Shown here: one piece after another, positions 1-19,423 of the stretch
Numbering within the stretch: the first letter of the stretch is position 1
Layout: every line of letters starts with the position of its first letter
IMG/VR virus record: IMGVR_UViG_3300034279_001265
DNA from: an uncultured virus (IMG/VR IMGVR_UViG_3300034279_001265)
Lineage: Duplodnaviria; Heunggongvirae; Uroviricota; Caudoviricetes
DNA length: 20,000 bases
Strand: one strand, 5' to 3'
Position numbers and translations under genes: made by a program
The notes under the pieces: generated by a model
What the model saw: the letters and a program-made list of their open reading frames with translations, nothing else
Database searches by the model: none
Told to the model about the DNA's origin: nothing

Positions 1-831
1 AGTCAAAGTTCCAGAGTCATAAGCCTTCTTGATGTATTCTTTACCCATCTTAGACACCATTGCGTCAATGTTGTTCAAAGAAGGATCTTTAGCAATGTTG
101 GAATCAAAAGAACGCCAGATTTCAGTAACAGGTACTGTACCATCAGCATTCATACCGCCTTTCATCATCAACTCAGCACGGCTAGAAACAGAGTAATGAA
201 CGTGAGCTTCTGCGCCACCTACAAAGTTGTAGAACTCGCGGAAGCCAGCACTCAGTTCTCCGATGTCAGAGAAACGCTCTCCGTATTCTCCACGGGCAGA
301 ACCCTTGCGGAAGAACTTGGTACCAGGCTTAAGGTAGACTTTGCTCAAAGTCTTTTGGTTGTCGTTGTTCACCAACTGAACAGTGTATACGAAACCGTCA
401 CCAGAAGGAAGAATATCCTCAGCGGTAATGTAAAGTTCAGCGCCTTTGTATTTGTCGTAGGTGATGATGTCACCATGACCGAAGCTGCGCTTGTTCAATT
501 TGATCTTGAAGGTTGTACCATCTTGACCAAGATTTGTCAAACTAGGCTCCACATCCTCTACAACGTAGGGAAGGTCCTGAACAATTGGGGTTTGCCACTT
601 GTATTCACCGCGAGGGTTGTCTACAGTGATGGTGTTCTTGCCACCGAAAGATGCCATCTGGTAAAGAGGCATTTCTACCTTTTGGGTCATAGCCCAAAGA
701 TCAACAGGACCCAAGTCCATGGGTTCTGCGCTCTTCAGCATATTTACCAAGTGGTAGCTGTCCACGTGCGAACTAACCTTGTAGCTAGTGTCGCGCAGGA
801 AGAGACCGTTGTTTAAAACTGGTGTGCTCAT
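1..831 (-). CDS. Major capsid protein, crAss-like (N-terminal 277 codons; continues beyond the left edge)
   Basis: Manual translation from ATG at 831: MSTPVLNNGLFLRDTSYKVSSHVDSYHLVNMLKSAEPMDLGPVDLWAMTQKVEMPLYQMASFGGKNTITVDNPRGEYKWQTP...LGQDGTTFKIKLNKRSFGHGDIITYDKY..., open to base 1. Strongly biased codon use, AT-rich leader, and position directly after portal and scaffold match the crAss-like capsid module. Confidence 0.85.
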   Translation of the reverse strand, partial: MSTPVLNNGLFLRDTSYKVSSHVDSYHLVNMLKSAEPMDLGPVDLWAMTQKVEMPLYQMASFGGKNTITVDNPRGEYKWQTPIVQDLPYVVEDVEPSLTNLGQDGTTFKIKLNKRSFGHGDIITYDKYKGAELYITAEDILPSGDGFVYTVQLVNNDNQKTLSKVYLKPGTKFFRKGSARGEYGERFSDIGELSAGFREFYNFVGGAEAHVHYSVSSRAELMMKGGMNADGTVPVTEIWRSFDSNIAKDPSLNNIDAMVSKMGKEYIKKAYDSGTLT

Positions 832-878: not shown

Positions 879-2123
879 TTAGCGTTTGAAAATGTTTGCA
901 GCAGGTCGCGGAATTTTCCTTGTAGGAGTTTTGTCTTCTTCCTCTTCGCTGACATTAGACGCAATTTTGCGTCCTTCTTCAGTTTTTAGTTTTCTGACAG
1001 TTTCCTGTGTTACCTCGTTTTTAGCTTGCTTTCTGATACTTTCTTTGTAATCATCAGGATCAGATAGCAACCACAGAGTTTCAGCAATAAGATCATAGCG
1101 GGGGGTTTTTCCAAATTGGTGGTCTTCCAAAAGCTTGCCCAACAAGTTTGTTGGACGTCCTGTCATACTCTGGTACTTTGCTGTTGTAAGTTCCTCCCAG
1201 AGAAACTTCTGACGCTTAGCGTCCAGCTTAATACCGTTGACTTCAGCAGGTTTTAAGGTGTTGTAAATGTTTTCCATGTACTCTTCCTTCTTGCGCTGCT
1301 GCTCCTGACGGAACTGCTCTTGTTGCTGAAGTTTGGATTGAATCACTTCTTCTTGCATAGCATCAAGCTTTGGCTTAAACTGCTGTGCTTTTTTAGCAAT
1401 GATTCCTGAATCCAACCACTCTTGGACTTGTTCTTCCATCAATTCTGCGTCACCATTTCCAAAACCGGTTGCTTGTAAATACTGTCTTACAATAACCTCC
1501 TGGTGTTCAGGTGTCGCAGGGTTAAGTTCACGCACTTCCTCAGTCTGAGCAAGTGCCCTAAATAACCCCTTGATGTCAGTGCCGCCCTTTGCTACATATT
1601 CTGCAGCATACTGCAACTCTTGAGGTAACGATTCAAAGAACTCCTTTGGAGTTTGTTCTCTGAGAGATTTCTCCCTTTCTTCCAGATTAGCAGAGATTAG
1701 CTCCTTCCAATCTTTTACAGAGTACTCATCCAGTGGTTTTTCATCATCAAAAGGAACCAGGACACCATCTTCAAAAAGTTTAGAAAATGTTTCTACCAGT
1801 CCGCTTTTGTCAATCTTTTTTCGACCAGGTTTCTGTTTTGAACCAGGAACCTCATCGTCATCTTCTAGATCTGCATCTAACTCTGCAATAGCCGCTTGAG
1901 TTGTTGCTGCACTAGGTGTTTTTTCTTTACCATCTTCGTTTCCATCACCTTCTTCTTCAAGAAAATTAAGATCTGCTGGAATATCTTTGGTAAAGAATCT
2001 TGGTTTTAAACTTTCGTCATTATCTGCTGTCACAACGCTTTCAGCCCCAGGCATTGGTAAAAAATCATCAAGGCTTTCAAGACTTACGCTGGATACAGAT
2101 GTTTGTTGGTTGTTACTGTCCAT
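879..2123 (-). CDS. Putative capsid scaffolding / head-assembly protein
   Basis: 414 aa, acidic low-complexity N-terminus, Q/E/K-rich coiled coil, located between portal and major capsid genes. Confidence 0.6.
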   Translation of the reverse strand: MDSNNQQTSVSSVSLESLDDFLPMPGAESVVTADNDESLKPRFFTKDIPADLNFLEEEGDGNEDGKEKTPSAATTQAAIAELDADLEDDDEVPGSKQKPGRKKIDKSGLVETFSKLFEDGVLVPFDDEKPLDEYSVKDWKELISANLEEREKSLREQTPKEFFESLPQELQYAAEYVAKGGTDIKGLFRALAQTEEVRELNPATPEHQEVIVRQYLQATGFGNGDAELMEEQVQEWLDSGIIAKKAQQFKPKLDAMQEEVIQSKLQQQEQFRQEQQRKKEEYMENIYNTLKPAEVNGIKLDAKRQKFLWEELTTAKYQSMTGRPTNLLGKLLEDHQFGKTPRYDLIAETLWLLSDPDDYKESIRKQAKNEVTQETVRKLKTEEGRKIASNVSEEEEDKTPTRKIPRPAANIFKR

Positions 2124-2242: not shown

Positions 2243-4969
2243 TTATTTTTTGTCATATTTGTTTTTGTTGGTTTGCGCAACTTGTAATTGTTTATCAGCA
2301 ATGCGCTCTTTAGAAAGCAATTCTTGACGTTTGAGTTCTATCTTTTTCTGTTCTGTAATAGTCCGATTTAACTCACGATCTCTTGCAATAGACTGATCAG
2401 CTTCTTTTGCATTTTTCTTGTCAAGATACTCTAAAGTGTCAATGTAGTCATTTTGCTGATTCATGTCACGATCGTTCATTGCTGTGTAACCGGCAGCTCT
2501 GATCTCAGCAACGCGCTCTTGACTTTCACGATTCAATGCATTTTGCTCTGCTTCAAAACGCAACTTAGCTTCAAGACGCTCTGTTTCAGCTTGTTGACGC
2601 ATTTGTTCTGTTTGCTGCAAGGCTTCAGTTTCCTGGGTCTTAGCTTTGGTAGTTTTTTCTTCAATGCCTTTCATGACATGCGTAATCTCTGCCATTGAGT
2701 CTGCTTTGACAATGTTACCAAGATCATAAATAGAAGCACCGGATGTGTTGTTGTTAATTGCCAAAGAACGAATCTGTTCCATAATTTGGCGTTGATTAAC
2801 CTTTGTAGAAATAAAGATATTCAGATCACGCGCCAATAATTCAGTACCATTCATCTCAAAGTTTACTTTTTCATCCATAGATGTTACGTATTGCAAACGT
2901 AAAGAGGGACGATTAGAATGGTAGTATTGAGAAAGATCTGTACGCATCTGATGCACACGCGGCATCAAATACTCTGAATGTTGAGTAAAGTAAGTTTCTG
3001 TTTGAGAGTAACTCATATTGATAGCCTGCTCAATACCCTGTGCAGTTTCTTGAGCATTTACAGCACCTAAACGCTGTGGTGATATACCAATAGACTCAAA
3101 ACACTGATTCTTAAAATAGTTGGCAAGTTGAATGCGACTCAAAAGACGATTTGTTTGCTCAAGATTCAATACTTGATAATGCTGAAAGTTTAATGCATTT
3201 TCTGTATTGGTAATAGATGTATCCAAGGGCAACATCTGAAAGTTCTTCATAGCCACATACGCCTTACCGTAGTTGTTTTTGCCCCAATCCTCCCCCATTG
3301 AGTGACGTGGCAGAGCATTCTGATCCAGCATGATTACTGTACCCAACTCGTCAATCAGAATGTCAGCAATCTGGTTATTAACCAGGTTGTAACCAATCTG
3401 ATATGGTTTCGTCTTGTCTACCAAAGACATGGACTTTGTATTGCGTTCTGTAAATACAGCACCTTCTACCGGCAACTTACAACCATACAAGGTAAAATCA
3501 CCCTTAAACTGAAAACGTAAAGGCTTTACATTCAGATAAAGTGGTTGAAATCCAAAAGTGTCATTATTGCCAAAGAATGCAGGTCTATTGGGACCAATCT
3601 TAGTACCTCCCCAAACCTCATTAATCCATATCCATTCAATATGTTCGCCATATACAAGATTTTCTTTACTTTTTCTTTTAAGTACTGAAGTATCATGAAG
3701 AGGTTTGTTTGTGATTTTATAATTTTCATCTACAATCATTTCAATCATCTCCCCATCCTCCTTAATTTTTGTCAGATAACCGACCATGCGTTGGCTCTTC
3801 CAGTAGCAAGTAGTAACCCTGAGAAGACTGATATCTTGAAAATCCTGAATACTTTCAGATTCGTTGACAATCTTCATGATGATATCATCACCTGTATTCA
3901 TAAATACATCACGTGCACTTAAAAACTGACGCATACCCAAAGAAGGACCCTGGGTATTCCATTCGTGTGAACGCGTAGCATCATAGAAAGAACCGTCATT
4001 CTGCAATCCTGGTATCAGATAACCTGCTGAATGCACTGGATAAATAGCTTCCAATGAAGCAAGTTGATCATCTGTCATCATGTATCCGTACTTGTCAATG
4101 ACATCTGAAATCGTCATAAGATCCACGCGACCTACCCAGTTAGACTGAGAAATATATCTTGCTTCAGGAGATTTATGATAAAAGGTTAGTACAGGATTCC
4201 AAAGCTCTACATCATAATCGTCCTCATTCATCTTAAAGTGCCAAAATTCCCTGTCAGAAATGAGCATGTCACGAAATGCAATATTTTCCAACTCTTTAAT
4301 TGCAAAACGCTCCTCATCAACATGATGCTGGTGATTAGCCCACTCTTCAACCATAGATCGGTAGTTCTTGCGAAAGAACCCTTCAATTTCTGGCAAACTC
4401 TTAAGACTTTCAGGTGCCATCATTTCTTGAGCTTGAGCAGCTTGCTCTTCATCCTCAAGATTCAGACCCATTGACTCAATGGTGGCCATCATTTTTTTCT
4501 CTGCTTCAGCGACCAATACCTGTTCTATCATTACTCTTTTTGCTTCCATCATCTCATTATAAGAGATGTCATCTACAGAACGATAGGTTATTTTGTCGTT
4601 ACGCTTAGCAAACTCCCCACACATTACGTTAATGATGTTGGGTATAATCGGAAAAAACTTCAATTCAAAAGCTGATTCATCCTGCTTAGTCAGAACATCA
4701 ATCAACTCTGCAACCTCGTTATCCTCTTCAATAATGTAGTCTGTTTTGTCAATAATGCCATTTGCAAGCTTATAGTTCTTCAAAAGTTTGCGCGCGTTTC
4801 TGCGGATTTGCTTAAGACCCTGCATTTCCAACCAGTCTATATTCCACGCGCCCCATGCTTCGTCTTTGTCTGTTCTGTTCAAAAACTGCACAGGTTGGGT
4901 TAAGGTGCCCATTCTGGTGTTGTCCACCTTGGCTCCGTTTTTGAGTTGTAATGCGTTAACTATTTTCAT
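2243..4969 (-). CDS. Portal protein (crAss-like)
   Basis: 908 aa immediately downstream of TerL; FFPIIPNIINVMCGEFAKR, FRDMLISDREFWH and GISPQRLG segments and a long C-terminal coiled coil resemble crAss-like portals. Confidence 0.85.
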   Translation of the reverse strand: MKIVNALQLKNGAKVDNTRMGTLTQPVQFLNRTDKDEAWGAWNIDWLEMQGLKQIRRNARKLLKNYKLANGIIDKTDYIIEEDNEVAELIDVLTKQDESAFELKFFPIIPNIINVMCGEFAKRNDKITYRSVDDISYNEMMEAKRVMIEQVLVAEAEKKMMATIESMGLNLEDEEQAAQAQEMMAPESLKSLPEIEGFFRKNYRSMVEEWANHQHHVDEERFAIKELENIAFRDMLISDREFWHFKMNEDDYDVELWNPVLTFYHKSPEARYISQSNWVGRVDLMTISDVIDKYGYMMTDDQLASLEAIYPVHSAGYLIPGLQNDGSFYDATRSHEWNTQGPSLGMRQFLSARDVFMNTGDDIIMKIVNESESIQDFQDISLLRVTTCYWKSQRMVGYLTKIKEDGEMIEMIVDENYKITNKPLHDTSVLKRKSKENLVYGEHIEWIWINEVWGGTKIGPNRPAFFGNNDTFGFQPLYLNVKPLRFQFKGDFTLYGCKLPVEGAVFTERNTKSMSLVDKTKPYQIGYNLVNNQIADILIDELGTVIMLDQNALPRHSMGEDWGKNNYGKAYVAMKNFQMLPLDTSITNTENALNFQHYQVLNLEQTNRLLSRIQLANYFKNQCFESIGISPQRLGAVNAQETAQGIEQAINMSYSQTETYFTQHSEYLMPRVHQMRTDLSQYYHSNRPSLRLQYVTSMDEKVNFEMNGTELLARDLNIFISTKVNQRQIMEQIRSLAINNNTSGASIYDLGNIVKADSMAEITHVMKGIEEKTTKAKTQETEALQQTEQMRQQAETERLEAKLRFEAEQNALNRESQERVAEIRAAGYTAMNDRDMNQQNDYIDTLEYLDKKNAKEADQSIARDRELNRTITEQKKIELKRQELLSKERIADKQLQVAQTNKNKYDKK

Positions 4970-5034
4970 TTGTGTTTTTTGTCAAGGCGTATATGTCTGT
5001 ACACGTAAGGCATCGTTAGTTCTTAGTGTTAGTG

Positions 5035-7233
5035 TTACCTCATGTTCTTGAAAGGGTTTCTGGGAACTTTGACCATGGTGGAGGAGCTGTTTGCGTTTCC
5101 CATGTGCCGGAAAGGGGTCACTCTTAATTTACTGATTTTTTTAGAGTTCTCCAAATTGCTGTCTTCATGTTCTACACGCTTGGAATAGCCCCTGTTAGAC
5201 TCCTGCACCTTGGCAAAAGCTACCAGGGCACAGAACGCTACCAGTCTGTCCACGTTCAGTCCATCTCTGTAAGCAGCCATTTCCTTTAGGAGCATGATGT
5301 CAGGGATGCGCTCAATGCCATAAGTTGTCCTGACTATTTCTCCATCAGGTTTCGTTTCAACATCCAACTGTTCTTCCAGGAACTGAATGGCGTAGGAAAT
5401 AAGGTTGGTTTTAAAAATCGTTCCCACATTGCGCCAGCCATATTCCTGGAAGACATTGGTGTTACTTTGAAGCTCTTTGAGAAAGAGAATCTGATTCTTT
5501 GGCACTAAATAACGTTGTTTACGCTTAGAAATCATATACTGAATAAACAAACTAACGTTGTTTTCTACAACCGTCCACGCGTTGTAATACTCAATAAGCA
5601 TTTCTAAACGCTCATGGGTTTTATTAAGGTCATCAAAACGACCGCACCAAGTAGCAACTATTCCGTCACGTTCAATGTGCTGTTCAATGGTACTATCCAT
5701 CTTGTGCTTGGTGATTTCTTGTGCAGTCTTATAGACATAGATAGAACATAATGACTCAGAAGTTGTGGTTTTACCTTCTGATACAGGGTCAATAGACGCA
5801 TAATACATGCCAAATGTTGGATCCTTCACAGGACGCTCGTACACTATAATGACACCTTCTTTATCAACTGTTTTTGGAGATATAGGAAATTCTGAAATAG
5901 GTAACTTGCGAGATTCTTTTGTGTTGATTTTCCCGTTGTCATCTCTATACAACTCTACAAACTCCCTGTGGTAATCACCATCTTCAATGCGTCTAATCTG
6001 TTTACTGACAAGTGCCAATGGAAACTTGGATACTTTGCGATATGCAAAAGCCTCCTCAATGTTAATTGGTTTCTGAGAAATTCTTAATTGATAATCCTCA
6101 GGTTTGAGTTTCTTTTTCCAATCCAGTCTTTCAGCAAGAATCATCTCCAAAGCTTTTTCTACCTGGGAGTTTCCATACTCATCAATGCAAGGCTGCATGC
6201 TCCACTGCTCAGGGATAAACAACCCACACTTGGCGATTTCACCGGATTCATTAACCAGGTTAGTATCTACTGCCAATACATCTTTAGAGTCTGGGTTTAA
6301 GATCAATTCTTTTAGAGGTTCACACTGCTCTAAGTCACCCACGGAACCTGCTGCAACAAACATACCTGTATAGATCATACCTGATTTCATCGCAGGTAGC
6401 AAATACTCTAAAGTCTCATTCATGCGTGGAGCAATACCTGCCTCTTCATGAAAGAATAAAGTACAGGGACCACCAACACCATTATTGGGATCTTTCTCTA
6501 AAGCAAGACCAAAGATTACTGATTTCAGACCCACATCACGCTTTTTACCCCCTTGGTTCACCTCAATTTTTTGTTCCCAGTTAAGTATCTTATCAGGGTT
6601 AGAAGGACGATACCAACCGGTGTGGCTGTTCAAGAAGTTGCGGTACTCTTCCAAAAACCTCCAGGTTCCTTTCTCGTTAATATAGTCTTTTAGAGAACCT
6701 GCCATCTTGCTAACAGCACCTTCTTCAAACCAGTACAGATTGATGATCTTGGCAGCATGAAAGTAAGAAGAGGCGATCTGTCTTTTCTTTAAGATTCCAC
6801 AATGTTTGTAACTGTGCTTGGCAATGTCTTCATATAGGGCCATGTGGTACTGCGCGTCACGCACGTCAGCAAATGTGAACTTGCCCACCTCTTTGTTGTA
6901 GATAGGCAGAAAGTTCAGCCACATGTAGTAATCCCTGGTTAGATACCAGGTACTACGAAGTCCTTGGATAATTACCCCATTGCGGCAGCGTTCCTTCTGG
7001 GTATCCCAGTAGTAGATGAAGTCTTTGCTGCGATTAGGCGCTGTGCAGTATACTTTATACTTGTTAAACAGCGTTGCCTGCTCGTTAAACTTTTCACAAC
7101 TCTTGTCAAAGTTGTACTGACCGGGTTCTTTTAACATGCTCCACAAAAACTCTACAAACGCTTCCCTGGACGCAAACTCAGTATGCGACCAGGTGTCTGT
7201 AGCAGTAGTGTATGTAGGAACCTTAATGTACAT
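5035..7233 (-). CDS. terL: Terminase large subunit
   Basis: 732 aa; Walker A-like LKKRQIASS, Walker B FFHEEAG, coupling motif AGSVG, RNase H-like nuclease motif YASIDPVSEG, C-terminal NVDRLVA aspartate. Confidence 0.92.
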   Translation of the reverse strand: MYIKVPTYTTATDTWSHTEFASREAFVEFLWSMLKEPGQYNFDKSCEKFNEQATLFNKYKVYCTAPNRSKDFIYYWDTQKERCRNGVIIQGLRSTWYLTRDYYMWLNFLPIYNKEVGKFTFADVRDAQYHMALYEDIAKHSYKHCGILKKRQIASSYFHAAKIINLYWFEEGAVSKMAGSLKDYINEKGTWRFLEEYRNFLNSHTGWYRPSNPDKILNWEQKIEVNQGGKKRDVGLKSVIFGLALEKDPNNGVGGPCTLFFHEEAGIAPRMNETLEYLLPAMKSGMIYTGMFVAAGSVGDLEQCEPLKELILNPDSKDVLAVDTNLVNESGEIAKCGLFIPEQWSMQPCIDEYGNSQVEKALEMILAERLDWKKKLKPEDYQLRISQKPINIEEAFAYRKVSKFPLALVSKQIRRIEDGDYHREFVELYRDDNGKINTKESRKLPISEFPISPKTVDKEGVIIVYERPVKDPTFGMYYASIDPVSEGKTTTSESLCSIYVYKTAQEITKHKMDSTIEQHIERDGIVATWCGRFDDLNKTHERLEMLIEYYNAWTVVENNVSLFIQYMISKRKQRYLVPKNQILFLKELQSNTNVFQEYGWRNVGTIFKTNLISYAIQFLEEQLDVETKPDGEIVRTTYGIERIPDIMLLKEMAAYRDGLNVDRLVAFCALVAFAKVQESNRGYSKRVEHEDSNLENSKKISKLRVTPFRHMGNANSSSTMVKVPRNPFKNMR

Positions 7234-16024: not shown

Positions 16025-16516
16025 ATGTCTCAAGTCCAAATCATCCCCAACTCCACCACAGGTAGCCTCATTACTCCGTTCAAAAACAATGCTGAGTACG
16101 GTTACCTACAATTGTCTCAGTCCTCTATGATCCCCGAAGGAAGTTGGATCAGAGAACGCAAGCGTAGCACCCTGTTGCGCGCTAAGTGCGACGTGTTGCA
16201 GCGTTTTGTGCAGTCTAACAAGACACTGTCACTCCCTGGACACATCGTTGTCAAAGAGTACGTTGAAAGCGAAGTTCCTGAGAATCTCTTTGAACAGTTC
16301 GCTAACAAGAATCTACCCGCTTCTCAAGCACTTGACAGTTTTGTCAAACGCGCAGGTCAAGACGGCGTAGAACTCTGTGTAGACGGTGAACGCATCATCA
16401 GATTCTCTGTGTATGACGCAACCGGTCAAGACCAGGATGTTTATGTACAGCACAACAACACCGATGCTGTACGTGAATTCAACGCTGTACGCAATTCTCA
16501 GAACGCAAAACTCTAA
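16025..16516 (+). CDS. Conserved hypothetical protein, paralog B of tandem pair
   Basis: Start ATG 16025 (MSQVQIIPNSTTG) aligns with the N-terminus of paralog A; the 15941 TTG extension runs through the regulatory repeat. Confidence 0.85.
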   Translation: MSQVQIIPNSTTGSLITPFKNNAEYGYLQLSQSSMIPEGSWIRERKRSTLLRAKCDVLQRFVQSNKTLSLPGHIVVKEYVESEVPENLFEQFANKNLPASQALDSFVKRAGQDGVELCVDGERIIRFSVYDATGQDQDVYVQHNNTDAVREFNAVRNSQNAKL

Positions 16517-16541
16517 GAATTGTAAAGCACTACAACTAATT

Positions 16542-16597
16542 TCTGAGAGAGTTGCTGAAGATTTAATAAGTCTTTAGCACTCTCTTAGATTTTTTTT
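16542..16597 (+). terminator. Rho-independent terminator
   Basis: TCTGAGAGAG-T-TGCTGAAGA / TCTTTAGCA-CTCTCTTAGA long stem followed by T8. Confidence 0.75.
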
Positions 16598-16754
16598 GTA
16601 AACGTAATGATTCCACAAGTAATTGATATACAAGAACTTATGTGAGTGGTAAGACACCCTCACTCAATACTTGAATGATCAAGAACACCTGTAGAAATCA
16701 AAAAATTTGACACTAAATGGCTATAAACCACTTGTTTTTGCCAGACAGTGTCAT

Positions 16755-16950
16755 TCTCATGCACCAGTTGTAGTAGTAAGATTAGACTTATCTTACTAGT
16801 AAGTCCTTACATTAAGTCTCTGTAAAACCTCCCTATGTCTATACATGAAAAGACTTGAGGTTGAATGCTAGGCAGCAGAGTGTGTTTTGAAGGCAAGGTA
16901 TTAAGAGCAAGAGCGCTACTGATATACTACTACAACTAAGTGCTATGAGA
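16755..16950 (+). ncRNA. Structured RNA, 'AGTTGTA...TACAACTWAGTGC' motif copy A
   Basis: Long-range pairing TCTCAT/ATGAGA, GCAC/GTGC and perfect 13-bp AGTTGTAGTAGTA (16766-16778)/TACTACTACAACT (16925-16937); no ORF. Confidence 0.55.
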
Positions 16951-16979
16951 GAGATATCTTCTTATCTTCTCTCTTCATG

Positions 16980-17170
16980 TAGAATCATAAGAGTCACCCG
17001 CGCCAGGCAGATCTGTGAGAAAAACAATACCGCTCCTCTCCTCTGGTTTATGCAGACCTGTTAACAAAGATGATATCACCATCATCTTGTCTGTGTAGAC
17101 TACAATCAAACGATAAAAGCAGACCAACGAGCGGCGTTGGTGTGTCTGGCGTTGGTACTCTAATGTTCTA
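16980..17170 (+). ncRNA. Rod-like structured RNA candidate
   Basis: Nested stems GAGT/ACTC, CGCCAGGCA/TGTCTGGCG, CAATACCGCTC/GAGCGGCGTTG, GGTTTATGCAGAC/GTCTGTGTAGACT, AAGATGAT/ATCATCTT; GU wobbles favour the plus strand. Confidence 0.55.
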
Positions 17171-17207
17171 TTTATATCATATTGTCCACTAAAACCTTCT
17201 AATTAAC

Positions 17208-17477
17208 ATGAACCTTAAAAAACTATTTGTATTTCTCACACTTTTGGTTAGTGTGATAAGCTTGTCTTCTTTTGGTATTAAAGCCTATGTTGATTATGAG
17301 GTTCTCAACACTCTTGAGGATATGAAAGAGTGGGTTGAGTATGACATGGCTGAATGCACCGATTCATGCATGACCAGCAAGTTGGATACTTACAAGCTCA
17401 ATCTAGATTTTTGCATTAAAAGACTGCGTAATCAAAATTCACACACTAAACGTGCATCTCATGACAATGACTATTGA
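17208..17477 (+). CDS. Hypothetical protein with N-terminal signal/TM segment
   Basis: MNLKKLFVFLTLLVSVISLSSFG; CACTAAAACC leader similar to those of the upstream modules. Confidence 0.7.
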   Translation: MNLKKLFVFLTLLVSVISLSSFGIKAYVDYEVLNTLEDMKEWVEYDMAECTDSCMTSKLDTYKLNLDFCIKRLRNQNSHTKRASHDNDY

Positions 17478-17712
17478 CGAATTCTTTAAACAACACAGTT
17501 CTCAGCTTGTAAAACTGCATGAAGACGACTCTGAAACAGGCAACTTCAGGCTCTTTTGTCCTGAAGAATGCTCTACTGCTACCCATTACAAAGACAATGG
17601 TTATGTTTTAGCGTCTATTTTTGAAGATCTTGACGGTGATGAGTATGTTGTCCTGGACAACGACTCAGATGATGCATTAGACAAAGTTGGTTTCTTTATC
17701 CTGCAACCTTAA
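17467..17712 (+). CDS. Acidic hypothetical protein
   Basis: D/E-rich ORF; start at ATG 17467 or 17461, overlapping the previous gene's end. Confidence 0.65.
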   Translation: MTIDEFFKQHSSQLVKLHEDDSETGNFRLFCPEECSTATHYKDNGYVLASIFEDLDGDEYVVLDNDSDDALDKVGFFILQP

Positions 17713-17726
17713 AATTTACAAAACCA

Positions 17727-17840
17727 ATGAAATTAAAAGTTACTGGTCAAGATAGAGCATACTATCTTATCGTAGTTCTTGGAGTTGTAACCATACTTTT
17801 CAGAATTGTTTGTCTTATCCTTTATCCTTTAAACCCATAA
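17727..17840 (+). CDS. Small single-TM protein (37 aa), not in ORF track
   Basis: MKLKVTGQDRAYYLIVVLGVVTILFRIVCLILYPLNP*; AAAACCA leader; fills the gap between neighbours. Confidence 0.6.
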   Translation: MKLKVTGQDRAYYLIVVLGVVTILFRIVCLILYPLNP

Positions 17841-17845
17841 ATCCT

Positions 17846-18205
17846 GTGAATAATTTAACCGGCTCAAAGTTTTTGCACCCTCGTTTCTGGACACAATCAG
17901 AAGAAGCTATTGTCACTCTTATTGTAAACAACCGTAAGAAAAACAAGACCCTTCACCATGCGTTTACTAAAGCAGCACGCGCTACAAACCGCAGCGTTTC
18001 AGCTGTTGCTGTTCGCTATTACACAAATTTGAAACCCACAAGTGTTATTGCCGGCAATGTACACAAAAAGATTACAGTGGGTAATGTCAGTAAAAGACAA
18101 ACATTAGGTGTTGAAATGAACACACAGCTTGTCTGTTTTGTCAAAACGCTGTTCACAAGACTTACACCTGCTGAGAAAGCAGAAGTATTGAAAAACCTAG
18201 GTTAG
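17846..18205 (+). CDS. Myb/SANT-like (RsfA-type) HTH protein
   Basis: WTQSEEAIV...HAFTKAARATNRSVSAVAVRYYTNLK resembles the W(T/S)xEE...AF..aa..l.Rs..a...R(W/Y) pattern; GTG 17846 is the likely start. Confidence 0.6.
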   Translation: MNNLTGSKFLHPRFWTQSEEAIVTLIVNNRKKNKTLHHAFTKAARATNRSVSAVAVRYYTNLKPTSVIAGNVHKKITVGNVSKRQTLGVEMNTQLVCFVKTLFTRLTPAEKAEVLKNLG

Positions 18206-18220
18206 GTTTGACCCACCACT

Positions 18221-18245
18221 GGCATACTGGTTAAAGTATGCTTTT
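18221..18245 (+). terminator. Putative terminator
   Basis: GGCATACT-GGTTAA-AGTATGCT-TTT just after the HTH gene. Confidence 0.5.
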
Positions 18246-18317
18246 AGCATGAAAACTTACTAGTTCTCTGTTTTTACTATAACAATCTGACCGCACAGCT
18301 GAGTGCAAATGGTATTA

Positions 18318-18399
18318 ATAGAGGTAAGCAGTTGTAATCTCCTTTGCTGGAGTTAAATAGGGGATTTATGACGCAGAACCAGTTACAACTTAGTGCTAT
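18318..18399 (+). ncRNA. Structured RNA motif copy B
   Basis: GGTAAGCAGTTGTAAT (18323-18338) ... TTACAACTTAGTGC (18383-18396). Confidence 0.55.
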
Positions 18400-18403
18400 A
18401 CTT

Positions 18404-18516
18404 TGTCTAAAACAACTGCAGTGCATGAAGGGTGTTTACAAGGGTTGATCACCTTATTGCACCTACGAAGGCTTAACAAGCCACTTGAAACGTAGCACTG
18501 TGGTTGTTTTTAGACA
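18404..18516 (+). ncRNA. Multi-stem structured RNA candidate
   Basis: 16-bp basal stem AAAACAACTGCAGTGC/GCACTGTGGTTGTTTT (2 GU pairs), internal GGGTG/CACCT, AAGG/CCTT, GGCTT/AAGCC and CTACG/CGTAG stems. Confidence 0.5.
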
Positions 18517-18517
18517 T

Positions 18518-18608
18518 TGTGTTGTTCCCTTGAGAAAGGAATATGGAAGCATAATAAATGGAAGGAAATTACGAACATTTTCCACAACACAGAGGACTTC
18601 TCATCCTC
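18518..18608 (+). ncRNA. Pseudoknot / kissing-loop RNA candidate directly 5' of the tRNA-like gene
   Basis: TGTGTTG/CAACACA stem; loop TGAGAA (18531-18536) of the TTCC/GGAA hairpin is complementary to loop TTCTCA (18598-18603) of the GAGGA/TCCTC hairpin. Confidence 0.5.
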
Positions 18609-18613
18609 AACAC

Positions 18614-18709
18614 AGTCAGGTGGCGGAATGGTAAACGCTCGCTTCAAGGTGCGGTCAGTCAACGAAATGTAAAACTGACTTGCAGGTTCGAATCCTGTCC
18701 TGACTACCA
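18614..18709 (+). tRNA. tRNA-Leu-like RNA with aberrant anticodon arm (possibly non-decoding)
   Basis: Acceptor AGTCAGG/CCTGACT + A + CCA; Leu-type D arm GCG-GAATGGTAAA-CGC; T arm GCAGG-TTCGAAT-CCTGT; anticodon stem only 3-4 bp with 8-nt loop TTCAAGGT; long variable arm GTCAGT/ACTGAC. Confidence 0.75.
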
Positions 18710-18972
18710 AGTTAACCACACTAAGACTAGAAACGTGGTGACAGCGTGGAAAGACACGCGTTTAATGTACCATTCTCACGTGGATATAAAGACTTCTTAG
18801 TAGTAACCATAGGTTTACAGTAACAATACTGGATGAAATTCTCCTATGCAATATTGTTTATGCTCAAGAGATACTAAGATGTAAAACCACACTGATTAAT
18901 TACAGGTTATCTAGATAACTTCTTCACAATATATATGTTTTAAACGCAACAAGAATGGTGAAGGTAAATCAG

Positions 18973-19116
18973 TCTCCCAAGGGTGAGCAGTTGTAATAGA
19001 GTAATGAAACATATAGAGTTGAGAAGTTAGCAAATAAATCTTCTTAATGTCCTAGCGGGCATTCCTATGTGTTAGTAATTACTAGTTTAAACCTATTACA
19101 ACTAAGTGCAGAGGGA
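18973..19116 (+). ncRNA. Structured RNA motif copy C
   Basis: GGTGAGCAGTTGTAATAG (18982-18999) ... CTATTACAACTAAGTGCAGAGGGA (19093-19116); 11-bp perfect stem. Confidence 0.55.
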
Positions 19117-19120
19117 ACGC

Positions 19121-19175
19121 GGCAAGTGCAAGGTGTCTGGTTTCTCATACCCAGGCACCTCACTTGTTGTTTTTT
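19121..19175 (+). terminator. Rho-independent terminator ending the ncRNA island
   Basis: GGCAAGTG-CA-AGGTGTCTGG / CCAGGCACCT-CACTTGTT followed by GTTTTTT. Confidence 0.7.
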
Positions 19176-19216
19176 AAAACTTATTTGATATTAACTTTAC
19201 AACTTAAATTTTAATT

Positions 19217-19423
19217 ATGAAAAAACTTTTTGTTTTTATCACAATCATCTTGACAATTGGTTGTGAAAATAATCGTCCGTATAAAGTTGTAAATGTAAAC
19301 AGCTTGAACGACAGTACTTGTAAGTATGTATTGTCACGATCTAATGGATTTGGTCCACAAGTCAAAACTATGACAGCACCATGCGGGAAGTACACACTTT
19401 TCCAAACCATAAACGAAAAATGA
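19217..19423 (+). CDS. Small putative lipoprotein
   Basis: MKKLFVFITIILTIG|C lipoprotein-type signal; AT-rich leader. Confidence 0.65.
   Translation: MKKLFVFITIILTIGCENNRPYKVVNVNSLNDSTCKYVLSRSNGFGPQVKTMTAPCGKYTLFQTINEK

Follow-up and report, generated by a model that had tools for sequence, protein, structure and literature searches.

The twister class of ribozymes, whose type P1 is catalogued as Rfam RF03160, has been reviewed in PMC6154101 and PMC6765202. According to the passages of PMC6154101 that deal with architecture, loop L4 forms two pseudoknots, T1 with L1 and T2 with L2, the RNA is cut at a U-A step, stem P1 is dispensable for cleavage, and the optional stems P0, P3, and P5 occur in 21%, 78%, and 1% of annotated examples, respectively. 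Here we describe an RNA element from a 20,000-nucleotide (nt) stretch of the genome of an uncultured Caudoviricetes virus (IMG/VR record IMGVR_UViG_3300034279_001265; hereafter the window), in which an earlier note, made from the letters alone, had reported three copies (A, B, and C) of an unrecognized RNA motif consisting of a conserved bulged basal stem around a variable insert. We consider it likely that the shared strands are the P5 base and the P2 strands of an uncatalogued lineage of twister-type (type-P1) RNAs, of which copy C is a complete member and copies A and B are disarmed derivatives. Such a lineage, absent from the Rfam catalogue, occurs in freshwater crAss-like phages; it is a branch of the known twister class, evidently derived from twister, and not a new RNA class.

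The three-copy strand pair is real. The 13-base 3' strand TACAACTWAGTGC is found without mismatches at positions 16931, 18384, and 19097, and these are its only exact occurrences in the whole 121,380-base virus genome, all on the + strand and within 2.4 kb; the reversed pattern, used as a control, gave 0 matches in the genome. When up to two mismatches were allowed, 4 matches were obtained versus 1.49 expected, and the finding rests on the three exact ones. The 5' strands of copy B (GGTAAGCAGTTGTAAT, 18323-18338) and copy C (GGTGAGCAGTTGTAAT, 18982-18997) are identical at 15/16 positions, and that of copy A is GCACCAGTTGTA (16761-16772). The stem extensions pair as the earlier note had it (GTAGTA/TACTAC in copy A and ATAG/CTAT in copy C), and the inserts measure ~150, ~45, and ~100 nt between the core strands, near the lengths it had given. 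Relatives were identified by scanning IMG/VR with exact patterns for the strand pair CAGTTGTA..TACAACTNAGTGC, binned by spacer length. These scans yielded 8 loci with spacers of 30-60 nt (with a pattern containing W), at least 125 loci at 60-90 nt, 71 loci at 90-120 nt, and 25 loci at 120-150 nt, such that the pair recurs around variable inserts in >200 IMG/VR phage loci. Among the matches listed, 267 matches correspond to 196 distinct elements, with one to three copies per related phage record and sizes of about 110 to 365 nt.

The order of conserved blocks in the family is P1-UAA-UGCA-CC-(P4 with loop UUCCCAAGG)-(CAGUUGUAAU..variable..AUUACAACUG)-AG-UGCA-GAGGG-P1', with A(U/C)(A/U)(A) between CC and P4, CUCAC/GUGAG as P4, and a U-rich stretch before the UAA. 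The Rfam twister-P1 consensus reads ccuu-UAA-cgCc-GCC-[P3]-P4(loop GUCCCAAGCC)-UAAA-gGcg-GAGGG-aagg. Hand alignment of the two maps P1, UAA, a P2 of 4 base pairs (bp; UGCA/UGCA), the P4 loop bearing UCCCAAG, GAGGG, and P1' block by block, together with the T1 pseudoknot, in which CCC of L4 pairs with GGG of GAGGG, and a putative T2, in which GG of L4 can pair with the CC after P2 (the consensus has GC). The motif is therefore not unrecognized, as this alignment supplies the twister helix order, the UAA, UCCCAAG, and GAGGG blocks, and a covarying CCC:GGG pseudoknot. Likewise, the bulged basal stem is not a stand-alone scaffold and is better read as P5, an AG joiner, and P2: the shared 5' strand runs from the end of P2 (GCA/GCAC) into the 5' side of a P5-like arm, the shared 3' strand comprises the P5 3' strand, the two-base joiner, and the P2 3' strand, and the variable insert corresponds to the outer portion of P5.

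The compact form of the element could be parsed in 102 of the 196 elements. The UAA is present in 98 of these, P2 is fully paired (4/4) in 101, CC follows P2 in 100, the loop UUCCCAAGG is found in 93, and GAGGG, which is the same as in the Rfam consensus, is found in 92. P1 has a mean of 2.71 contiguous pairs, versus 1.44 with shuffled partners (maximum of 1.79 in 500 shuffles). Changes in the two T1 strands go together, as the L4 variant UUCCAAAGG (5 elements) co-occurs with GAUGG (4) and the L4 variant UUCACAAGG (3 elements) with GAGUG (3). An alignment for covariation was assembled from 40 of the 102 compact elements, comprising those of ≤150 nt with at least 4 of 5 P4 pairs, with both pseudoknots included. 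In this alignment 91.3% of the cells are paired, compared with 82.5% in shuffles (0/500 reach 91.3%) and 32-46% when the partner strand is slid, and changes on both sides are seen at 5/5 P4 pairs, 6/6 P1 pairs, and 2/3 T1 pairs. T1 is paired in 96.7% of the cells, T2 is complementary in 98.8% and essentially invariant, and P2 hardly varies. Covariation and conservation together establish the fold. A covariance model of the family, R1, was built from these 40 rows.

P5 was examined free of its own sequence by a scan that used the L4 loop and GAGGG as anchors, which resulted in 45 distinct elements. The P5 base is exact in 35 of these, and the other 10 differ mostly by compensatory changes (as in CAGUCCUGUA/UACAGGGCUG and CAGUUUAUA/UAUAAACUG), indicating that P5 is a true helix with an unusually conserved base. 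Ordinary small twister-P1 matches adjoin two of the family members, at 388-456 (+) of locus L051 and 1025-1088 (-) of locus L068, in each case 100-150 nt upstream. These small twisters have P3 and no P5, begin with the same UUGUUAAUGCA.., and share a CCA:UGG variant of T1. At 48-49 bits (E about 1e-9) they fall short of the Rfam gathering score of 67.2 and are consequently also lost to default annotation.

Of the three copies in the window, only copy C has the full core (Table 1). The strands that the earlier note had delimited are sound but its bounds were too small, as copy C lies within a 365-nt structure that begins at 18757 and copy B extends over 18236-18401. Both UCCCAAG and GAGGG are present in copy C and provide the T1 partners CCC (18976-78) and GGG (19113-15). 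An unconstrained minimum free energy (MFE) fold of 18755-19125 recovered P1, P2, P4, both extra arms, and P5 (z -2.77 against shuffles), and R1 scored the 3' part of copy C at 36.7 bits (E 1.4e-7). When the whole genome was searched with R1, copy C and one weak match elsewhere were obtained. The weak match, outside the window at G000:C1:2277-2343 (-), scores 19.9 bits (E 0.018), has the form UAAUGCACC..GUGCAGAGGC without a CCCAAG loop, and is possibly a chance match inside a gene.

Table 1. Predicted features of the three copies and their surroundings in the window (R1, covariance model of the family; L005 and L100, related IMG/VR loci; z values are against shuffles)
Feature	Position	Strand	Basis
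Complete expanded twister-type element, ~365 nt, with copy C as its 3' half	18757..19121	+	Hand mapping, MFE fold, R1, L005 ortholog
P1 5' strand CGCGUU, pairing with AACGCG at 19116-19121	18757..18762	+	6 contiguous pairs; same pair in L005
UAA of L1, predicted cut U18763/A18764	18763..18765	+	Aligned to UAA of the Rfam twister-P1 consensus
P2 5' strand UGUA (18766-69, with UGCA 19107-19110) and CC (18770-71; T2, with GG 18981-18982)	18766..18771	+	
P4 5' strand CUCAC, pairing with GUGAG at 18983-18987 over about 200 nt	18775..18779	+	MFE fold
Extra arm a in P4 loop, GUGG-AUAUAAA-GACUUCUUA..variable..UAAGAUGU-AAAA-CCAC	18780..18890	+	MFE fold; 19 loci
Extra arm b, ACUGAUU..AAUCAGU	18891..18973	+	MFE fold; CUGAUUAA..UUAAUCAG flanks recur in relatives
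L4 loop CUCCCAAGG, with T1 CCC 18976-18978 and T2 GG 18981-18982	18974..18982	+	Matches family loop UUCCCAAGG
P5-like arm (core stem and insert of copy C), first pair a C-A mismatch	18988..19103	+	z -4.01
Joiner AAG, P2 3' strand UGCA (19107-10), GAGGG (19111-15; L1 3' strand)	19104..19115	+	Read from sequence
Hairpin abutting P1, P0-like or terminator-like	18744..18759	+	Similar hairpin and U-run before many relatives
Hairpin and U-rich run after the element, putative terminator	19131..19175	+	Conserved in L005
Copy B, disarmed derivative	18236..18401	+	R1, 16.1 bits, E 0.029
Orphan 3'-like strand ACAGCTGAGTGCA, in the P4-loop insertion of copy B	18295..18307	+	Similar stretch in arm a of L100
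Copy A, long hairpin with basal helix CUCAUGCAC/GUGCUAUGAG, P5 core, and ~150-nt arm	16748..16957	+	z -4.05

The expanded architecture recurs in relatives. An ortholog of the expanded element is located at 5237-5530 of the related locus L005, next to a protein that is 58% identical to its counterpart in the window, and retains P1 (identical), P2, P4, L4, and GAGGG with a different P5 arm. An expanded-type 5' flank is present in 31 elements, and the 5' part was located for 13, in 12 of which the long-range P4 is paired at 5/5 positions, including the variants CCUGA/UCAGG and CUCAU/AUGAG. Some family members, copy C included, have two additional arms within the P4 loop and span 215-365 nt. Arm a has a conserved base, GUGG-AUAU(A/G)AA-GACUUCUUA..UAAGAUGU-(G/A)AAA-CCAC, with a tip of 21-100 nt in 19 distinct loci, and resembles a recurrent peripheral domain. 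We would give the enlarged copy C only slightly better than an even chance of being active as a ribozyme, given that its first P5 pair is mismatched and that its P4 loop holds about 190 extra bases.

Copies A and B are reduced to different extents. Copy B comprises P1 (GUAU/AUAC), P2 (AGCA/UGCU, changed on both sides compared with UGCA/UGCA), P4 (CUUAC/GUAAG, enclosing a 63-nt insertion that contains the orphan strand listed by the earlier note), and P5 (18330-37/18383-90). It is missing from L005 as a clean ~160-bp indel (L005 4425-4445 versus window 18236-18405) whose junctions share CTTT, compatible with either a microhomology deletion or an insertion, and copy B is probably a decaying derivative. 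In copy A, P1 and P2 form one helix without P4, and R1 recognizes the P5 part only (9 bits). As the ortholog of copy A in L005 (3041-3263, 37.9 bits) retains a P4-like hairpin and GAGGG, copy A looks like a further-reduced derivative. Judged by their sequences, both copies are most likely inactive as ribozymes.

Several structured or conserved stretches lie close to these two copies. A 123-nt RNA at 18406-18528 has a 20-bp closing stem, GUCUAAAACAACUGCAGUGC..GCACUGUGGUUGUUUUUAGAC (z -4.2), is conserved in L005, lies under RNA contigs, and has no Rfam match; its stem is similar in sequence to the P5/P2 duplex, the loop being placed at the opposite end. The gene-free stretches 16517-16740 and 16960-17207 contain blocks kept in L005, such as GAGUCACCCGCGCCAGGCAGA near 16992, and RNA contigs cover 16947-17143 in 3/4 runs. 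There may be further non-coding RNAs around copy A.

The 196 elements were sorted by the parts of the core that they retain. Both the L4 loop and GAGGG are present in 98 compact elements with a cleavage site, in 27 elements with a site-like motif farther upstream, and in 14 elements in which no site was found. GAGGG is kept without the L4 loop in 32 elements and the L4 loop without GAGGG in 6, 17 elements have neither (among them copies A and B and some chance or coding matches), and 2 have too little flank. In many of the elements that lack the L4 loop, CCC is located directly 5' of P2, giving one continuous helix (for example, CCCUUUGCAC/GUGCAGAGGG or CCC-AA-UGCAC/GUGCA-GA-GGG). From their sequences, these disarmed forms appear to have rebuilt the P1/T1/P2 stack as a plain helix in which the scissile loop is gone.

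A number of observations weigh against the assignment to twister. The only match of Rfam to the window, at the gathering score and at E ≤10, is a tRNA, the Rfam twister models gave no match at E ≤10 on the elements of 10 typical relatives or on 4 loci with the shortest-armed members, and RF03160 gave no match in the whole genome at E 1. The comparison with Rfam that the earlier note had called for thus found the motif matched by no Rfam model. Where the consensus has its conserved UAAA linker, between P4 and the 3' strand of P2, the family has P5 and AG, which is why it is classed as a twister variant rather than as a member of RF03160; the consensus GCC is replaced by CC. The CC:GG pairs of T2 never vary and so receive no support from covariation. 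The elements were retrieved with sequence patterns derived from the motif, and the P4 pairing in the alignment is partly there by construction, through the choice of rows. In the window itself, copies A and B have no UAA site loop, L4 loop, or GAGGG, and hence neither T1 partner, copy B folds like shuffles (z -0.20 and 0.04 in two tests), and all three copies have A/U where 100/102 relatives have G, such that the first P5 pair is mismatched. The L4 loop is absent from 49 of 194 classifiable elements (32 with GAGGG and 17 without); with about a quarter of the family lacking it, cleavage is not the sole selected property. Finally, the RNA support consists of contigs, from which ends cannot be read.

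The disarmed fraction can be accommodated in two ways. In the first, which we regard as rather unlikely, the ribozyme has been exapted: a quarter of the copies, A and B included, would be non-cleaving versions, the conserved P2-P5 axis would be what a factor of the phage or host recognizes (such as a stabilizing or RNA-end-processing protein), ribozymes and their mimics would form graded 5'-leaders that tune early transcripts, and the arms would be swapped as cassettes. In the second, which is harder to credit, the selected unit is the P2-joiner-P5 helix itself as a protein-binding or processing handle, with the twister loops ancestral or accessory and cleavage irrelevant in many copies. The P5 base is indeed unusually conserved for a peripheral arm, as the P5-free retrieval showed, and copies A and B plus 47 others of the 194 classifiable elements retain the axis without the L4 loop. 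With CCC moved 5' of P2, the disarmed helix keeps the stack and is uncuttable, and in the RNA contigs of relatives copy B shows no change over 18321-18409, whereas the nearby sequence varies. However, both pseudoknot partners are retained in 139/194 elements and T1 covaries, which would not be expected unless the ribozyme fold were important. No candidate for the bound protein was identified, copy B folds no better than shuffles and is missing from L005, and several of the elements that lack both the L4 loop and GAGGG (e.g., L012, L237/L230) resemble chance or coding matches. The earlier note had listed both a small ribozyme and a processing handle among its options, and the ribozyme option is borne out in the twister-type fold.

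The arms enclosed by P5 are mostly unrelated in sequence (150 clusters among the 196 elements) and structured nonetheless: compared with shuffles of the insert, z averages -2.26 and falls below -2 in 56%. Copies A and C themselves fold far better than shuffles (z -4.05 and -4.01). The earlier note was right in seeing an RNA-level structure encoded on the + strand, whose base is conserved and whose distal insert is variable and structured. Diversity and structure would also suit arms that are functional cargo (guides, antisense RNAs, or decoys) on a constant scaffold, and the same 101-nt arm is found in the expanded element of the window and in a compact element of a relative, which indicates that arms move as cassettes. 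We nevertheless consider cargo very improbable: when the arms of the three copies and both extra arms were compared with the genome of the phage itself, the best matches extended over 11-13 nt only, which is the level of shuffled inserts and gives no support within this genome to the proposal that the inserts are guides or decoys, no motif common to the arms was found, and the exchange of arms is simply explained by recombination between the conserved cores of neighboring copies. In the relative concerned (L153, 200-740, compared with window 18840-19120), the sequence is identical to that of the window as far as the P5 5' strand, arm b and L4 included, and then enters another P5 arm, and the 101-nt arm is located ~185 nt further on, within a second, compact twister. 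P5 arms therefore move between copies as blocks, probably by recombination between conserved cores.

Least probable of all is a DNA-level feature, with the inverted repeats serving as operators, recombination sites, or miniature mobile element ends: the conserved arms are inverted repeats, the 18406-18528 hairpin uses a similar duplex with its loop at the other end, copy B shows a clean ~160-bp presence/absence with CTTT flanks, and one locus (L205) matches the pattern on both strands, but the three copies in this genome, and the family generally, are on the strand of the flanking genes, G-U pairs, which are mismatches on the other strand, are common (17/40 at one P1 pair), a covarying pseudoknot has no meaning in a DNA duplex, the inserts are unrelated, unlike mobile-element copies, and the region is present in RNA libraries. 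Integron attC sites have core sites of the form RYYYAAC..GTTRRRY. An attC site was rejected because the polarity of the arms (AGTTGTA..TACAACT) is the reverse of this consensus, and a miniature inverted-repeat transposable element because the inserts are unrelated, forming 150 clusters among 196. A reading of TTAATGCACCA as a promoter was dropped, as it is better read as the end of P1, UAA, P2, and CC, and passages of the phi14:2 preprint give no motif that matches it. A Y RNA, a retron non-coding RNA, a CRISPR-repeat mimic, an invertible promoter, and spliceosome-like GTRAG..CAG ends were likewise dropped because the twister alignment explains every conserved block. Pistol, hatchet, and hammerhead ribozymes were set aside, with no Rfam matches.

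The region is represented in lake metatranscriptomes, as 25-44% of the sampled words of 18600-19300 are present in 20 runs from 12 studies. RNA from four runs from four studies was mapped as assembled contigs, which show neither RNA ends nor absence and for which there is no DNA-run control. Contigs cover 18214/18230-18612, including copy B (in 3 runs), and two of them end at 18612, just before the tRNA at 18614-18709. In the four runs, contigs begin at 18777, 18779, 18787, and 18789, 13-25 nt after the predicted cut; a contig start is not an RNA end, and we take these positions as a weak hint of self-cleavage. Contigs reach 18998, where three (X1-X3) enter another P5 arm, and a piece from X6 ends at 18896. 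No contig was placed on copy A, and among the pieces listed none spans 18640-18776; as contigs do not show absence, we give neither point any weight.

By analogy with the established twister mechanism, the intact form would fold through a double pseudoknot, L4 CCC with GAGGG and L4 GG with CC, and would cut its own transcript between U18763 and A18764. Self-cleavage at this step, which we infer for the expanded element, would release an upstream product containing the tRNA and non-coding RNA transcript with a 2',3'-cyclic phosphate end and a downstream RNA with a 5'-OH that begins with a compact structure. The element would thereby act as self-processing punctuation in early transcripts, uncoupling adjacent units.

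The elements are located in transcribed, gene-poor spacers, on the strand of the neighboring genes. In most relatives the element lies 25-50 nt ahead of a small gene. A same-strand open reading frame (ORF) of at least 40 codons with an ATG start begins within 200 nt of 120 of 186 elements, a count made without a control for gene density, and the distances have a median of 58.5 nt and cluster at 35-60 nt. Of 83 such ORFs examined, 66 are complete in the flank and encode 50-165 amino acids. No Pfam family was found for 77/83, and the 6 hits are mutually unrelated; with 77/83 lacking a Pfam family, a link to one particular downstream gene family was dropped. A same-strand tRNA was found by ARAGORN within 300 nt downstream of 6/191 elements. 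Relatives commonly have a hairpin directly against P1, in many cases with a U-run behind it, and this hairpin may be either P0, which is optional in twisters, or a terminator.

In the window, the upstream neighbor of the expanded element is the tRNA at 18614-18709 (Rfam, 41.3 bits). ARAGORN reports for it an 8-base anticodon loop with the four-base anticodon 'caag' and no amino-acid assignment. Its variable arm is a long hairpin and its CCA is encoded. The gene could specify a Leu-type tRNA whose loop has gained one base, or else a tRNA of the frameshift type. In L005, two tRNA-like genes with large insertions (e.g., in the D-loop region) are located at 4620-5190, upstream of the expanded twister, and ARAGORN-type tools may miss tRNA genes with such insertions. 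The phage itself is a distant crAss-like phage, as its portal and terminase match PHROG families and the terminase is 25-27% identical to terminases of crAss-like and Flavobacterium phages. A blastn search of GenBank phages gave no match for 16400-19400 and only chance-level matches of 27-33 nt for 18740-19180, and a scan of genome contigs for a host returned 6 contigs from metagenome-assembled genomes only, from lake-type assemblies, with no host indicated. Our literature search, which did not cover the original twister paper, found no paper joining twister ribozymes with crAss-like phages or Crassvirales.

Review passages describe the biological role of genomic twister ribozymes as still unknown. 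In this lineage, natural copies number in the hundreds and share a consistent setting, downstream of a hairpin and either 25-50 nt before small early genes or next to tRNAs, and its size variants, its expression in lake metatranscriptomes, and its naturally disarmed copies, which are built-in controls, make the processing hypothesis testable. Standard covariance models miss this abundant branch of a well-known ribozyme class, and Rfam-based surveys of phages consequently under-count ribozymes.

Among known systems, the proposed role is closest to that of the RNase III hairpins between the genes of phage T7, where long early transcripts are cut between cistrons and structured ends are left; in T7 a host protein enzyme makes the cut, whereas in the window family the RNA is predicted to cut itself. 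The theta (minimal HDV-like) ribozymes, as presented in a preprint (bioRxiv 10.1101/2023.06.13.544163), are likewise small self-cleaving phage RNAs found by tRNA genes and proposed to process transcripts. Their fold is different, and an HDV-like or theta fold was rejected for the family because the AAGG that is all that stands between CCC and the P4 3' strand leaves no room for P3/L3 and because there is no Rfam match. Twister-sister (RF02681), according to the passages of PMC6154101 devoted to it, has a similar P4 terminal loop and multi-stem junction, is unable to form the pseudoknot of L4, and is cleaved in the P1-P2 loop on the opposite strand. In the window family, by contrast, that pseudoknot covaries and the UAA is on the twister side, and RF02681 gave no match in the Rfam searches of the window and of 10 relatives. 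The closest system is twister type P1 (RF03160), with which the family shares the order P1-L1(UAA)-P2-L2-P4/L4-P2'-L1'(GAGGG)-P1', the L4 core UCCCAAG, an L4-L1 pseudoknot that covaries in the family, an optional P5 arm, a P0-like hairpin, and sites near phage genes and other twisters. It differs in that no member is scored by the Rfam models, P3 is missing, the UAAA linker is replaced, and L2 has CC with GG rather than GCC. P5 is present in every retrieved element, compared with the 1% of annotated twisters given in the passages of PMC6154101, some of which may already belong to this branch. The family P5 has a near-invariant base and a hypervariable tip of 40-150 nt, and the family further departs from type P1 in its members with two more P4-loop arms and in its sizeable disarmed fraction.

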